Virus record (IMG/VR): IMGVR_UViG_3300028886_000055
Coordinates: 75,731-139,730 of that record
DNA length: 64,000 nt
Reading direction: 5' to 3' (one strand)
Source: a virus
Lineage: Duplodnaviria; Caudoviricetes
Below the pieces are notes generated by a model. That model saw only the letters and a list, made by a program, of their open reading frames with translations, made no database searches and was not told where the DNA came from. The position numbers were made by a program, and so were the translations under genes. Below, in pieces: positions 1,619 through 37,070 of this stretch; positions within the stretch are counted from its first letter, which is position 1; every line of letters starts with the position of its first letter.

Positions 1619-3813
1619 CATGTAAATCTAACTGTATCATTATAAGGATTACCATCATAAAGCTGATTAAGTTCGATTTTAACTTTCTATTTATCAATTT
1701 CAGTTTGTCCTTCTTTATAGGTTCTATCAGTCTAAGCTTGATACCATCTGATTTCTTTATCGGTTTCAAGTTTAGCCTATTCTAGTTGTAACTTCTATTC
1801 GTTAAGTTGCTCTAGTTTTTGAGACATTTGCTAGTTCTGCTATTGAAGTTGCTACATCTATTGTTGAGCCTATTCAAGTTGTTGTTGAAGTTGATTAATC
1901 TAGTCTAATTCAGCTTTCTTTTTAGCCCATCCTTTTTTCATCATTTGCTTTAATTCAGTCATACTACGACAAGAAATAGCTTCAGCAGCCATATCTGGCT
2001 CTAGCATATTAGCCTATATCATCTATATGACTGTCTATCTCAACTACTCTAAATCTTTAAGAATTTGAGTTGAAGATATAATATGTATATCATAATCTGT
2101 AACTGTAAAATATTCTGGAAGAATTGTAAATACTTTCTACAAATGATCTCCAAGAATAATAGAACCAGTTAAACCATTTTTCCATACAATTTTAGCCATA
2201 TCAACACAATCAATCAATATATCAGTAACTAAAGTATCCATTTGTTGATAAAATGGCTTTGTGATTGTAAATGAATTTTTAGCTCCGGCTTCTATATTAC
2301 TTACAGCATCACGCTATGTAATTCCATTTAACCTTTCTCTAAATACACCTGTAATTGAAGTTACCTGATTTTCAATACGTTCAAGAACTATTTCAAATGC
2401 TTGAATAGCTTGAACTTTTGTAGCATCATCAAATCCAGACATAAATGTATTGTTATTAAATCCTCTACCTTCTTGTGAAGAATCAATAAGAGCTGTACCA
2501 CCTTTTTTATATGCTAACCATTTCTAGATACGTTCTGTCATATCTGAACCTAAAAATGCAGGAAGCATTGAAACATCAAGCCAATCTCCAATTGTACCGC
2601 TGTTAGCAAGAAGATTATCACGTAAGAAAATAGTTACATCATAACGATCTTGTAAAGTTGTACATTGTAAAACAAGGCTAGTTGGTAAATTATCACGATT
2701 CATCATAAATATACCACCTACTGATAGTTTACAATGTCTTGGAGCATCTTGTGTTCTTATAATATTCTAAGATAATCCAGTAGGAATATATATAGAGTTA
2801 CCTATACGTACACCCTCATATCGATTTTGGATATATTTACCTCCCTATTTATCTACGTCAATCCACTCAACTTCAAATACAGGAAGTAGTTTATACATAT
2901 AAGTTTCGTATCCGTCAATTGGAAATCCAGGCACCACTCGTTTACCATTATCTAAATCTCCTTCCATTGGAGCATGAAGTAATGAATTATTATGTGCAGT
3001 AACATACATAAAATTACCATCTTCATAATGATTATGCATATCATCAAGTTCAGATATTGCATCACGAGTCATTCTATCTCCATATTCTGCAAGAATTTGT
3101 TCTCGGGTCATCCATTTACGAATAACTACACGATAACTATCTTTAACATACGGAGAATCTGGATTTCTATCTACAAACGTATTTAAAGGGTTAAGACATT
3201 CAATAACCAAATTAGTACCTTCGGGAGAAGGTTTAGTACGATAAAAAGCACATCCAGCTATTAACAAGTCTTGGAGTAATATTCTTTTTTTATTTGAAAG
3301 ATCGGTTACTCTAGATTGAGATACATAATCTATAACATTTTGTGCTGCTATTTCGTACTCACTTATAAAATTGTTATCAATGTCTTCGATAAGTTTATTT
3401 ATTTGCTAATCAATAGCTGGATCTTTTAAATCCTTTCCATTTACAAAATCAAGAATCTATTTATTTAAATCTTGTTTATATAAATTAAAAAGTTGTCGTT
3501 TTATCTCAAGTAGTTTATCTCTATTTATGTTAGTTAGAGTCTATTCATCTTTACAAGAAACTTTAGCAATTGTTGGTACATCCAAATATTCGCCAAGTAA
3601 TGCATCTACATGCTTTTTAATTAACGGTGTAAACTCAACTTGTGTTGGATTACCTATACCAAAATTTTCTTCAAGATACCTAAACTATTCAGAATCTCGT
3701 CTACCGTTATAGTAATTATAAGCTTTCTATAATTTAAATTTATGATGGACAAGTTCATTAATAGCTTTGTCTACTTGTTCTATTACATATTCTTTACCCC
3801 TCGCAGCAGCCAC
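1618..3813 (-). CDS. Portal protein, crAss-like, 731 aa, code 15
   Basis: GTG start; KAYNYYNGRRD..FRYLEENFGIGNPTQVEFTPLIKKHVDALLGEY; track fragments 2524 and 2845 share this frame and are joined by TAGs; Gln-rich coiled-coil C-terminus; next to terminase. Confidence 0.9.
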
Positions 3814-18338: not shown

Positions 18339-18348
18339 ATAAAATTAG

Positions 18349-18422
18349 TCGGGGATCTCGGACTCGAACCGAGACCTTGGGTTTTAGAGACCCTTGCGCT
18401 AACCTAATTACGCTAATCCCCA
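18349..18422 (-). tRNA. Amber suppressor tRNA (anticodon CUA), Gln-like acceptor
   Basis: TGGGGAT...ATCCCCG-A acceptor; anticodon loop CT-CTA-AA; T loop GGTTCGAGTCC; 5' UGGGG resembles tRNA-Gln. Confidence 0.92.
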
Positions 18423-31387: not shown

Positions 31388-32038
31388 GATCTCGTAGCTC
31401 AGTTGGTTTTTAGAGCACCACACTTTGATTTAAGAGTGCTATGGCGAGAAATCCCATAGTAGAATCACCTAAATTCGGTGGAAACCCTTTTTATACTGAT
31501 AATATAAATTCATTTGTATATAAAATTTATGTTAAAATAAATATAAAACTTTTGAATATAAATAGCGTCTTGGCTATATCCAAGCAATAATATCAGTAAC
31601 ACTAACCAATAATGTGTAAGGACAATACCGAGCGAAAATAATGAATCAGATAATATATTGAATATTCTGTGGGAAGGAATTGTTCCATACCTGACATTAT
31701 TCATTATAATCGTGTAGAGACTGAACGGGTGATACCGTAAATTAGTAAAGAGATTATATGTGTAGAACGGTGCTGGTGAAATGGGTACCTTTAAGGCTTG
31801 TCCTTTGAAGCATATAATTTGGAGCAGTTCACCCTCCACTAATACGGTACTTAGACAGTCCAGACCACAACAAATGAGATAGTATAGAGCTGGCACGGCT
31901 GTTCGGCTGATATAAACCGAATAATAAATGTGCAAAAAGTTGATTTGTTTCAAACTATCGGTGATGTTTCATTTGGCTATGGTAACATAGAGTGGTAGGT
32001 TAATGTGGGAGTCCTGGGTTCGAATCCCAGCGGGATCA
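31388..32038 (+). tRNA. tRNA-Lys(UUU) split by a group I intron after U34
   Basis: Exons ...CCACACTT | TTAATGTGG... rebuild the loop CTTTTAA. Confidence 0.85.
31426..31999 (+). mobile_element. ORF-less group I intron, 574 nt
   Basis: P1 CACTT/GAGTG with terminal U-G; AAATTCGGTGGAAAC; CAATACCGAGC; GTAGAGACTGAACGGGTGAT; ACAGTCC; terminal G. Confidence 0.85.
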
Positions 32039-32042
32039 CTAA

Positions 32043-32124
32043 GCGGTTGTGCTGTAACTGGTAGCCAGGTCTGGTTTAGGCCCAGATGTCGAAAGGCGTG
32101 GGGGTTCGAGTCCCTTCAACCGCA
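32043..32124 (+). tRNA. tRNA-Leu(UAG)
   Basis: TCTGG-TTTAGGC-CCAGA; long variable arm. Confidence 0.88.
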
Positions 32125-32152
32125 CATTTATTAACAATTAATTTATTTAATT

Positions 32153-32816: not shown

Positions 32817-32988
32817 ATTGAATATCTCATAATTTCATTTAATGACCTAAGCATGTCTTAAAACTGCTTAAATTGCTCGATTGGCGAAATTCTAGGTAAA
32901 CGCAGTAGACTTAGAGGATATTTTTATTCTAAAGATTTTCATTAACTAAATTTAACAATTTTGACTTGGAAGACTCGAAATTTTTCTT

Positions 32989-32996
32989 TATATTTG
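32989..32996 (+). promoter_or_regulatory. Internal -7 box TATATTTG for the intron HNH ORF
   Basis: TAnnTTTG about 20 nt before the ATG. Confidence 0.55.
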
Positions 32997-33017
32997 TGTA
33001 TATAAATAATACATAAT

Positions 33018-33881
33018 ATGAGTAAGGAAAAATATACAAACGAAGAATTTATTCAAGCCGTTGCTAAAAATAAATCTTATGCAGGAGTAATGAAACAATT
33101 AGGTTTAAAACCTGCTGGAGGAAATTATGCAACTGTAAAGAAAAAGATCCAAGAGTTAAATTTAGATACATCACATTTTACAGGTAAAGGTTGGAATACT
33201 GGTTTAAAGTTTAAACCAAAAGTCGCAAAGCCTTTGTCTGAAATAATGGTGGAAAATAGTAATTATCAGTCTTATAAACTTTCTCAAAGATTAATAAAAG
33301 AGGGTTTAAAAGAGCATAAATGTGAGAATTGTGGGAGAACTGAATGGGAAGGATTTCCTATTGCATTAGAACTGCATCATATAAATGGTGTACATACTGA
33401 TAATAGATTTGAAAACCTACAAATGTTATGCCCTAATTGTCACGCTATGACTGATAATTATAGAGGTAAAAATATCAAATTGAGTGCACAGAAAGAAATT
33501 TCTGATGTAGAACCTTGTAAATTCAAGGAAACCTTAACAGATAATGCTGATGGCAATCTTGAGCCAAGCCAAAATGTTATTTTGGAAGGTGCAGAGACTA
33601 GACACAAGGAACCTAAACCTAAAAAGAAAAAGATTTTAGAGCCAAAATATTGTGCGTATTGTGGTATTGAACTAATAGGAAGTGCTAGAAAAAACAAATA
33701 TTGTTCATCAGAATGTGCACATAAAGCTAATGGAAGTAAAAGACCTGACGTTTTTACATTGTTAAATGATTTCAAAGAATTAAAATCGTTCGTACAAGTT
33801 GGTAAAAAATATGGTGTAACTGACAATTCTGTTAGAAAATGGTGTAAACTCTATGGAATTTTAGACAGGGTTAAGGAATAG
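33018..33881 (+). CDS. Intron-encoded HNH endonuclease
   Basis: CENCG...LELHHINGVHTDNRFENLQMLCPNCH; C-terminal Zn finger and HTH. Confidence 0.92.
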   Translation: MSKEKYTNEEFIQAVAKNKSYAGVMKQLGLKPAGGNYATVKKKIQELNLDTSHFTGKGWNTGLKFKPKVAKPLSEIMVENSNYQSYKLSQRLIKEGLKEHKCENCGRTEWEGFPIALELHHINGVHTDNRFENLQMLCPNCHAMTDNYRGKNIKLSAQKEISDVEPCKFKETLTDNADGNLEPSQNVILEGAETRHKEPKPKKKKILEPKYCAYCGIELIGSARKNKYCSSECAHKANGSKRPDVFTLLNDFKELKSFVQVGKKYGVTDNSVRKWCKLYGILDRVKE

Positions 33882-34294
33882 TCCAGCCTACAAACTTAAA
33901 AAGGTAGTGAAAACTATAGTAGGAAGAAAATCTACCGGTCTGAAAAGGCCTTGCTGGTTCGAGTCCAGTATCGAGCACTAATTAAACAAAAAATATAACA
34001 CTGAGGTGGACTTCAAACGCAAAACCTATTAAACTAGGCGTATGTGCGAAGTATTAGAGTTGGGAAGGATCGCTACCTTGGTAAGTGTTGTATTTTATAA
34101 TCCTTTTCAGCGTTTACGGTGTAACAGAGCGCTACGCTTGGTCTATAAGTACCTTGAACTTACAAAAACCGTTAACTGTCGTATTAGGTAGAGGAAGCCT
34201 AATATTCATAATTATTAGAGGTGGCTAATATAACCTTTTGCTCATATTGTTTGCTCAGTATCCACCTATACTGAGCTTTTTAAAATTAAGGATT

Positions 34295-35101
34295 ATGACA
34301 TCTGAGGAATTATTTGAGAAAGTGTCAGAACTTATAGATAAGACTTTTAAATATAAACCTATCAGTGAAAAAGAAGCTGTTGGTAAAACAATAGAGAAAA
34401 TCTATACACTTTATAATGGCTGGAGTGATAATTACAAAGTAATCACTTTTACTGATAAAACTGCTTTATATTATGAATGTGATAAAGATCCAGAAAGACA
34501 TCCTAAGTTAATAACATCATATGGTGACATAGAAAGCGGCATTAATGTTTATTTAAGTAGCCTTGGAAGTTCACTTTATGATGAAGGTCTTTTAAATGAT
34601 ACTACTGAACTTTTAAAAGCTGAAGAGCAATATAGATTAACATTTCTTGAAGAAAATAGACAAGAACAAATTAGAAAACTTAAAGAAATATTAAAGCAAT
34701 TAGAAAATAATTGAATTATGGAATCATTACTTAAATATCCTGCAGTTAAAGACTTTGAAGGTAAAGTCTTAGATAGAATTATCTTTCGAAAAATGCGTAT
34801 TGCGCAATTAACAATCCTCATATTTAAGGATAATACAGCTTGTTATATTATTGGACAAACAATTGCCAGTGATCCTATAATTGTAAACACTATACATTAT
34901 GATGATGGAGATGTTGATGTGATTTATACAGACTTAGGTTGTGAACTTTCAGACTTAGGTTTACTAAATATATCCGAAGTTGAAAAAGAAACATTAAGAC
35001 TTAAAAAAGAAGCTCTTGCTGAAAAAGCATCAATAATTGCCCAAATAAAAGAACTTGAAAAGAAAATAAATGAACTAAAGAGTAATTATAACATTGTTTA
35101 A
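34295..35101 (+). CDS. Two related hypothetical proteins (34295..34714, 34718..35101)
   Basis: Both have GK.(I/L)..I...I.F.D.TA...(S/T).LG..L.D.GLLN and a C-terminal coiled coil. Confidence 0.7.
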
Positions 35102-35154
35102 TTACTTTATAGGCTGCCTCGGTAGCATAATGGATAATGCAACGGGGTAATGTT

Positions 35155-35238
35155 GGAGGGATAGCGCGTAATTGGAAGCGCCTCAGTCTTCTAAACTGAT
35201 GCCAGTTGGCCTTGTGGGTTCGAGTCCCACTCCCTTCA
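35155..35238 (+). tRNA. tRNA-Arg(UCU) with extended variable arm, nested inside the split tRNA
   Basis: GGAGGGA/TCCCTTC-A; TCAGT-CTTCTAA-ACTGA; GTGGG-TTCGAGT-CCCAC. Confidence 0.8.
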
Positions 35239-35943
35239 CTAATAACTAAATAAAATTATTATGGAAAGTAAATGGTTTAATGAAAAAGAAAATCTAGAAT
35301 AGATGATTCTAGTAGATAAATTATCTTATGAAGAAATAGGAAGAAGATATAATTGTTCTGGAAGTAACATTAAGAAAGTTGCATCTAGAATTGGTATAGA
35401 ATTACCAAAAAGAAGAAAAATAAACGGTTCTGAACACTTTAATAAAGGAACTGGAAAACTTAATGTCTGTCTTAATTGTGGTAAAGAATTTAAATCGTAT
35501 TCTGGATTAAGTGGAAAATATTGTTGTTCAGAATGTGAAAAAGAATATAAACATAAACAAAAATATCAGCTCATATTAGATGGTGACCCTTCAATAATGA
35601 GAGCTAATTATTCTCCTAAAATTTTCAGACAAGACATAATTAATGAACAAAATGGAGTATGTGCAATATGTGGTATGAAACCAGAATGGAATGGTAAACC
35701 TTTAGTTTTCATTATTGATCACATTGATGGTCATGCTTCAAATAACAAACGAGACAACCTTAGATGTATTTGTCCAAATTGTGATTCGCAGTTAGATACT
35801 TATAAATCCAAAAATAAAAACGGAGAACGTAGTTATTATAGGTATCATAAAGAAGAATAAGCAATCGGTCGTGCGTGCAAGTCGTACCTGGGGTACTAAA
35901 ATTGATATGAGTTAACCTTATAGGTTACACTCCCTTCACTAAT
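35228..35943 (+). repeat. 16 bp direct repeat CACTCCCTTCACTAAT (35228..35243 and 35928..35943)
   Basis: Exact copy of the tRNA-Arg 3' end 700 bp downstream. Confidence 0.85.
35261..35860 (+). CDS. HNH endonuclease with N-terminal HTH; TAG at codon 14
   Basis: MESKWFNEKENLE[TAG]MILVDK...CAICG...IDHIDGHASNNKRDNLRCICPNCD. Confidence 0.88.
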
Positions 35944-36002
35944 GATTAATTCTTTTAATTATTTTATTTAAGATATAAATACTAATTTAAAAATAATGCA
36001 TT

Positions 36003-37070
36003 ATGAAAATTAAAAACAATACTAAAAATTTAATTCCACGTCATTAGACTGGTGGATTAGTTAGAAAATATCAACTTGCTGCTGGTTCACGAGGTATTGA
36101 ACGATATAAACCGACATTCACTGATCGAATTGTTTTAATGTCACGTAATACACCACAAAATAGAGCTGTTAATAGAGCAATATTTGCAGCTAAGGATAAT
36201 ACAGGACTTCCGATTAGTACATGGCCTAAATACTCATCGATTACGAACAAAACGATGTCTACATGGCCGGATGGTGAAACAACAATGTATATTAATAATA
36301 ATAAAGATAGTATAGGTCTTGATGGTACTATATATAATAATAGTGGAAAGGTTATAGGTAATGATGGTATTATTACAACTGCTTCTAAACCAGCTCAAAA
36401 CAAAGGAACTCAAGGTAAACCTGCAGGAACTAAAGGTAACAGTTCTAAAGGTGGTACTAGAGGTAGTAAAGGTAATGTAAGAACTACTGCTAAACCTGCT
36501 GCAACAACCACTACCACAACACCTACTGTAACACCAGCATCCACAGAAAACACAGGTAATTATACTATTCAACGTGGTGATACACTTGGAGCATTAGCAA
36601 AACGATTTGGAATGTCAGTAGATGAACTCGCTAGATTAAACAATATTAGTAATCCTAATCGTATTTATGCTGGTCGAACTTTAATTACTAAAGCTCCTAC
36701 TGTTGAAACTCCCGACATTAAAATTGAAACTCCTAGTGTTCCTAATTATGGATATGGAGTTACAGATAGTAATCTAAAACTAGGAACAAACTAGCAATAC
36801 TATCCTTCATATAACTAGGATGAATTATTAAGATCTGCATTTTCTAAATTTGGATTGAACTTTGATGATTATAAACAATTAACTGCTGATAAATTACCAA
36901 CAAATGTAGCGCCTGTTAGTCAGGAAGTTAAGACTTTTAATCCAGGTAATACTGTTTAGACTCCATCTTATAAAGCTTTAAGAGATGCACGCTTAGAAGA
37001 TGAAGCATTAAAAAGAAGTAAATTATTATCTTTTGCAAAACAAGGAACTAAATTAATTAGAAAAAAATGA
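36003..37070 (+). CDS. KKYQ-family LysM protein, 355 aa, code 15
   Basis: LIPRH[TAG]TGGLVRKYQ...; YTIQRGDTLGALAKRFGMSVDELARLNNISNPNRIYAG; C-terminal FAKQGTKLIRKK. Confidence 0.85.

Follow-up and report, generated by a model that had tools for sequence, protein, structure and literature searches.

SegB of phages T4 and T6 is the closest described system to the locus analyzed here. It is a free-standing GIY-YIG homing endonuclease encoded in a tRNA gene cluster, and it cuts inside the tRNA genes of phages that lack it and is co-inherited with the neighboring tRNA genes, the recipient's markers being lost (PMC2330249; PMC13096335). In T6, a unit of tRNA-Tyr and segB has been amplified via microhomology (PMC2330249; PMC13096335). 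SegB recognizes a T-psi-C stem-loop motif and has no isotype preference (PMC13096335).

We analyzed a 64-kb stretch of DNA from a gut phage (the window, whose coordinates are used throughout), which is part of a 139.7-kb viral record. Five pieces lie in series on its plus strand at positions 35116-35943: the 5' part of a broken tRNA gene (psi-A), a complete tRNA gene (tRNA B), an HNH endonuclease gene, the 3' half of psi-A, and the remnant of a further tRNA gene (psi-B'). We consider that they probably represent a homing-endonuclease cassette that carries its own spare tRNA and that two or more successive replacements have left their traces here. Loci used for comparison carry L numbers; they either encode relatives of the window HNH protein or were recovered by a flank-word search.

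Layout of the locus

An initial annotation had described the halves of an outer tRNA gene at 35116-35943, ∼710 bp apart, with a complete tRNA-Arg(UCU) and an HNH gene between them, and we recovered all of these elements at those positions. The inner gene, tRNA B (35155-35239, plus strand, 85 nt), is called by ARAGORN and is intact, with the anticodon UCU, a structured long variable arm that gives it a class-II shape, and A as the discriminator base. It scores 49.6 bits with the Rfam tRNA model and 45.3 bits with a tRNA-Arg(UCU) covariance model built for this analysis, and across 11 homologues of the B family, compensatory changes were found in 16 of 24 base pairs, including all three pairs of the variable arm. 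Both A20 and C35, the established identity elements for ArgRS, are present. ARAGORN found no second tRNA-Arg gene in the 139.7-kb record, and AGA makes up 58% of the Arg codons in its long ORFs (687 of 1191).

Long-armed tRNA-Arg(UCU) genes also occur elsewhere (L125:2351-2435, L141:3072-3159, and L182:2347-2435). Together with the window gene they represent at least three tRNA backbones, and all lie beside this HNH family. The literature that we searched does not describe a long variable arm for tRNA-Arg, and to our knowledge textbooks list none. Because long-armed and class-I forms swap between near-identical flanks, the two presumably do the same job.

The 5' remnant of psi-A (35116-35147, plus strand) derives from a class-I tRNA-Arg gene, as judged by its acceptor pairing and its D-arm word. 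Its first 26 nt (35116-35141) comprise a 7-nt acceptor strand (35116-35122), U8 and A9, the D arm (35125-35140), and A26; the last 6 nt, which follow A26, fit no partner anticodon stem. The 19-nt D-arm word occurs 121 times in viral contigs, 114 times as part of a tRNA-Arg(tct), and the D arm scores 13.5 bits (E 0.013) with our tRNA-Arg(UCU) model. The 3' remnant (35858-35895, plus strand) opens with the anticodon-loop bases TAA and the 3' strand of the anticodon stem. A variable loop, a T arm at 35871-35887, and an acceptor strand at 35888-35894 follow, and position 35895 is the discriminator. The stop codon of the HNH gene, TAA, doubles as T36, A37, and A38 of this half.

The acceptor strands of the two psi-A pieces pair at seven of seven positions, with three G-U pairs. 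A T-arm hairpin directly adjoined by a strand that pairs 7/7 in this way has a single instance in the 64-kb window, at 35871, against 0.16 per strand in shuffled sequence. The 3' half is most similar to its counterpart in the tRNA-Arg(UCU) gene beside the HNH gene in L139 (∼31 of 40 positions identical, including an odd T loop); taken on its own, the 3' half is weak, at just 4.8 bits with the tRNA-Arg(UCU) model. The D-arm word and the likeness to L139 bear out the proposal that the outer halves resemble tRNA-Arg(UCU). The idea that the outer gene is merely interrupted did not stand. The anticodon-stem strands of the two halves do not pair, and ARAGORN accepted none of 1350 joins as a tRNA-Arg; therefore, outer gene A is dead. 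The mismatch between the two anticodon-stem remnants may mean that the pieces stem from different alleles.

Immediately after the psi-A discriminator, psi-B' (35896-35943, plus strand, ∼48 nt) opens at C35 with CTAA. It is the decayed 3' half of a B-like tRNA and ends in the exact 16-bp repeat of the 3' end of tRNA B to which the initial annotation had drawn attention (35228-35243 and 35928-35943). The repeated 16 nt comprise the last 12 nt of the tRNA and 4 nt of trailer. Upstream of them, psi-B' matches B at 20 of 28 positions, with seven of the eight mismatches being G>A or C>T, and its T loop has a 6-nt deletion; the similarity score to B was matched in 1 of 2000 shuffles. The decay is uneven, the final 16 nt being intact versus eight changes in the preceding 28 nt. 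We rejected a target duplication as the source of the repeat. It forms the end of a third tRNA remnant, and the locus thus records at least two events.

The HNH gene (35261-35860, plus strand, 199 aa) is the only ORF of at least 60 aa between the psi-A halves. It begins 21 nt past tRNA B, and because this gap is so short, the two are probably co-transcribed. In the predicted protein, a helix-turn-helix at the N terminus and a zinc ribbon precede a C-terminal HNH domain. The protein matches phrog_10822 (E 2.7e-22) and, weakly and slightly short of the cut-off, Pfam HNH_3, and a D-H...N...N...C-P-N-C motif is conserved in six HNH homologues. Among solved structures, no chain matched better than E 0.2. 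In comparisons with GenBank phages, the sole matches of the window phage were short, lay under the HNH gene, and were to the uncultured gut phages cr116_1 and cr53_1, which we take to be crAss-like. Most HNH ORFs of the family are preceded by a conserved palindrome, TTCGTA ... TTTG ... TACGAA (e.g., L126:2435-2514), and in the same region a long hairpin pairs the first four HNH codons with upstream sequence; palindrome and hairpin are probably a promoter or operator plus a translational block. This region is missing in the window, where the ORF follows tRNA B so closely.

The reading frame of the HNH gene contains one in-frame TAG at codon 14 (35300-35302). The aligned residue is Gln in three of five homologues, in one of which it is itself encoded by TAG, and His and Lys in the other two. 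The homologue alignment supports reading TAG as a sense codon for Gln in the window phage. A tRNA with the anticodon CUA lies at 18348-18422. The in-frame TAG suggests that full-length nuclease would be produced only while this suppressor tRNA is active.

A scan for group I and other ribozymes returned no match at E ≤ 10 over 34000-37000, in agreement with the annotation, which had noted no group I core at the locus; likewise, neither a group I core (P3-P9) nor another known ribozyme was found in 19 related loci scanned. As a positive control, the same scan detected the group I core of an intron in a tRNA-Leu gene of the window (33513-33609; 39 bits, E 7e-8, which is under the Rfam gathering score). 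This tRNA-Leu gene is split at ∼32868-33976, with halves that match perfectly and an interruption of ∼1 kb after U34. Its insert contains a 293-aa HNH ORF (33018-33899), inside which the group I core match lies, and the window HNH protein is 34% identical in its catalytic domain to the protein encoded there. A complete tRNA-Leu(tag) is located at 32043-32125.

The HNH family and tRNA-Arg(UCU) genes in other phages

We examined 80 viral loci that encode relatives of the window HNH protein. At 53 of them, a tRNA-Arg(tct) is the closest tRNA on the same strand within 200 nt of the HNH gene, although this species accounts for only 63 of the 413 tRNAs across those loci; a long arm is present in 28 of these 53 adjoining genes. 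Many of the loci also contain tRNA-Arg fragments, whose sharp ends fall at CTT/CTAA, between anticodon positions 34 and 35. The 5' fragments stop after CTT in L135, L138, L140, L196-198, and L122. The 3' fragments begin with CTAA in L136, L137, L154, L122, and psi-B' of the window and with TAA in psi-A of the window and in L196-198. These ends mark the points at which DNA was joined and need not equal the cut site.

Several genes at these loci have unusual forms. In L161 (∼2360-2440), L171 (∼3110-3190), L185 (∼2350-2440), and L191 (∼2310-2390), tRNA-Arg(UCU)-like genes beside the HNH gene carry a D-loop-like segment after the anticodon arm rather than before it and were missed by ARAGORN. Suppressor-type tRNAs (anticodons UCA and UUA) occupy the usual place of tRNA-Arg(UCU) just upstream of an HNH relative at L194:2402-2474 and L244:460-531 and may have derived from tRNA-Arg(UCU) by a change of anticodon. 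A tRNA-like sequence at L001:3095-3168, immediately after a long-arm tRNA-Arg, has good acceptor, D, and T arms and an aberrant anticodon region; ARAGORN did not call it.

A search with flank words for phages that share the downstream flank of L136, L137, and L154 allowed alleles to be compared directly. L209 holds an intact long-arm tRNA-Arg(UCU) and no HNH gene. It is 99.8% identical to L154 over 1728 nt upstream and 449 nt downstream, and in place of its tRNA positions 1-34 and the 10 nt upstream of them, L154 has an 823-nt cassette composed of a class-I tRNA-Arg(UCU) and an HNH gene; identity picks up again at C35. L137 and L210 show the same junction with a fragment of a second long-arm allele, one that is whole in L204, L208, L211, and L212, where a different HNH gene precedes it. 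At this junction L136 has a hybrid allele. The loci L136, L154, and L137 are ∼99% identical over 1 kb except for a 45-nt tRNA fragment, in which about one-third of positions differ (L136:3152-3200, L154:3065-3113, and L137:690-740); the stems are kept, and the variants each match a different intact allele among sister phages. The tRNA-Arg(UCU) gene is a hot spot of allele turnover.

Replacement has also run in the reverse direction. In L135, L138, and L140, the 5' 34 nt of a class-I tRNA-Arg are followed by the HNH gene and then by a complete long-arm tRNA. L001 and L127 differ solely by an HNH insert of ∼705 nt immediately upstream of an unchanged tRNA. Nested tRNA-in-tRNA arrangements with a nuclease gene, for which the initial annotation had proposed a search in phages, are present in L122, L170, and L198 and partly in L139, with HNH proteins 56-77% identical to that of the window. 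L122, at 77%, combines a long-armed inner tRNA with class-I outer halves.

These comparisons bear on two further proposals, that an HNH element breaks its target tRNA gene while bringing in a working isoacceptor and that comparison of loci would reveal an uninterrupted tRNA-Arg allele. Both hold in relatives of the nuclease: the first in the L209/L154 pair and the nested loci and the second in L209 and in L204, L208, L211, and L212. For the window phage itself, an empty allele was not found. When viral contigs and GenBank phages were queried with the flanking DNA, the LysM protein encoded downstream, and the 127-aa protein encoded upstream, no close relative of this phage was found.

The closest relatives of the window HNH protein (76-77% identical and colinear) are encoded in intron-like inserts between positions 34 and 35 of tRNA-Arg(UCU) genes: L124:1225-1963, L126:2377-3140, L128:2385-3130, L133:2398-3134, L168:874-1600, and L270:171-902. 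The inserts are 727-764 nt long, with 626 nt in a metagenome copy (L278). The interrupted genes have perfect halves, whose joining gives a valid tRNA-Arg(tct). The split gene is the only tRNA-Arg(UCU) in the complete genomes of L126 and L128 and in those of L133 and L124, which are 96% and 82% complete, respectively; Arg(acg) is found in all four of these genomes and Arg(cct) in three. As expected for homing, one and the same insert is found in differing alleles (L126 and L231; L168, L249, and L256; L128 and L238).

At its 5' start, the insert has a probable pseudoknot with moderate support. The 3' end forms a 12-bp (7+5) tRNA-like minihelix that corresponds to an acceptor and a T arm; its T loop is invariant, and a single "discriminator" base comes after it. 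Across eight sequences, 95 of 96 minihelix pairs are standard, with many compensatory changes. Right after the extra base, the exon begins with CTAA, the sequence that usually trails tRNA genes as well. No group I or known ribozyme signal was found in the inserts, even with a focused scan, and they lack a terminal G ahead of the 3' exon. Searches of these phages for RNA ligases returned no RtcB and no Rnl1-type enzyme, but the latter blank is weak, the family having gone undetected in all control genomes. Matches to PF09414 were rejected as RNA ligases; they are ATP-dependent DNA ligases (PF01068, phrog_114).

It is conceivable, though doubtful, that these inserts (L124, L126, L128, L133, L168, and L270, plus the metagenome copies) constitute a new kind of phage tRNA intron outside group I. 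Since the minihelix and its single extra base directly precede CTAA, cleavage by host RNase Z could create the 3' splice site. Alternatively, the inserts may sit in recently killed genes, with end structures that stabilize the HNH mRNA. If the relatives are spliced, they would reveal a new pathway by which bacterial and phage tRNAs mature. The window has the same geometry as minihelix and CTAA where the T arm and acceptor of psi-A meet the CTAA of psi-B', and this junction could be a snapshot of a minihelix arising from a former host tRNA. The description of the window element as intron-free holds only in part: no group I signal is present, and because the closest HNH genes interrupt tRNAs at this very position as intron-like inserts, the intron-free condition is probably a derived state.

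Origin of the five-part order

In the history that we favor, the working unit would be tRNA B plus the HNH gene, a cassette specialized on tRNA-Arg(UCU) genes. The nuclease would cut the tRNA-Arg(UCU) genes of cassette-free co-infecting phages in or beside the anticodon, at 34/35, and the break would be repaired off the cassette-bearing genome, so that the nuclease gene and the neighboring tRNA would be copied in together. With homology on both flanks, the old allele would be converted cleanly and vanish; with homology absent on one or both sides, microhomology end joining would leave the halves of the old gene behind. One recurrent joining microhomology would be CTAA: it forms the usual trailer of tRNA genes in these phages (tRNA B and the tRNA-Leu of the window, L136, L124, and L126) and at the same time spans nucleotides 35-38 of the Arg(UCU) loop. 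In the window, the junction at 35895/35896 falls precisely at CTAA.

Within the clade of the window HNH protein, class-I genes are interrupted and long-armed tRNAs adjoin the HNH gene (the window, L122, L125, and L130-132). The long arm, inserted ∼10 nt 3' of the break, would spoil the recognition site. With A and B' both dead, B would supply AGA decoding. The sequences show directly the anatomy of the locus, the association of the HNH family with this tRNA, the point at which the gene is broken in other phages, and the presence or absence and replacement of the element between near-identical relatives. Where and how specifically the enzyme cuts, that B is immune, and the sequence in which the events took place are inferred.

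No workable history was found by which a single event yields the five-part order. At least two events are needed, and each of the two-step histories requires an extra deletion or a template switch. One such path would begin with an "HNH + A" cassette entering a B-like gene at 34/35; a "B + HNH" cassette would then enter A, and the upstream leftovers would be lost.

The locus might instead have begun as an intron that degenerated. An HNH insert at 34/35 of A, comparable to those in L126, L128, and L168, would have lost its RNA ends; the loss of the structured 5' leader and of the 3' minihelix would have killed A, capture of tRNA B would have compensated, and the mobile unit would never have been "tRNA + HNH." Such a past would account for the colinear resemblance of the window HNH to the intron-type proteins (76-77% identity), and it is also favored by the acceptor pairing of A, whose G1-U72 and U4-G69 recur in the host tRNAs of L128 and L168, by the homology between the window and the L168 type, which begins only ∼10 nt before the ATG, and by the manner in which the HNH ORF enters T36 of A directly, without a minihelix. 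We nevertheless regard it as improbable, because "tRNA + HNH" cassettes replace alleles as a unit in relatives and because it leaves the psi-B' remnant behind psi-A unaccounted for. To an intron that is still spliced, in which a 710-nt insert with B and the HNH gene would be removed and the halves of A joined into a working tRNA-Arg, we give almost no credence. It would have in its favor the 7/7 pairing of the psi-A acceptor strands and the group I intron after U34 in the window's own tRNA-Leu gene. However, neither a group I nor any other ribozyme signal appears at E ≤ 10, the psi-A 5' piece has no anticodon-stem strand able to pair with the 3' piece, C35 is missing from both junctions, and ARAGORN accepted 0 of 1350 joins as tRNA-Arg.

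Ordinary decay of a tRNA cluster, with the remnants as leftovers of duplication and deletion and the HNH gene as a bystander, is a very unlikely explanation. Phage tRNA clusters are prone to recombination, and several other orphan T-loop pieces lie in the window (e.g., 32015-32029), yet the composite match formed by the halves of A is unique in the 64 kb. Moreover, several independent lineages break the same tRNA species at the same nucleotide, always beside this HNH family, a pattern that argues against a bystander.

A homing cassette with a spare tRNA would amount to a second lifestyle for a selfish nuclease inside a needed gene, one that makes up for the gene it destroys with a second copy rather than by removal as an intron. 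In relatives, the outcome is repeated replacement, in both directions, between the ordinary and long-arm forms of one tRNA. Near-identical phages that differ sharply in exactly their tRNA-Arg(UCU) look like the product of an arms race between nuclease and target, which would explain both the variability of phage tRNA genes and the existence of genes that tRNA finders miss. The family would also offer a natural set of nucleases apparently aimed at 34/35, together with presumably immune and sensitive substrates.

Relation to known systems

The literature that we searched, which yielded SegB and general intron papers, does not describe a cassette of this type. The likeness to SegB lies in a free-standing nuclease placed among phage tRNA genes and traveling with its tRNA neighbors. 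SegB is a GIY-YIG enzyme, whereas the window nuclease is of the HNH type, and only HNH-type families match it. SegB has no isotype preference (PMC13096335), whereas the HNH family of the window is tied to one tRNA species and to position 34/35. Nested tRNA-in-tRNA scars and swaps of structural class within one isoacceptor go unmentioned in the available portions of those accounts (PMC2330249; PMC13096335).

Mobile group I introns that interrupt tRNA anticodon loops (e.g., in tRNA-Leu(UAA)), among them the tRNA-Leu intron of the window, resemble the element in their insertion after U34, in an HNH gene with a related catalytic domain, and in homing with co-conversion of exon sequence. They differ in that the window locus and the relatives scanned have no ribozyme core and the intron-like relatives no terminal G before the 3' exon. 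Moreover, the interrupted gene of the window is dead, and a second tRNA gene supplies its function. Integrase-driven elements that enter tRNA genes and bring a replacement 3' end likewise displace the 3' portion of the tRNA gene to the downstream side of their insert, and with them, too, the tRNA 3' end is repeated. In contrast with them, the window insert has the HNH gene as its only ORF and no integrase, its break lies in the anticodon rather than in the T arm or the 3' end, and it supplies a whole tRNA of another structural class.
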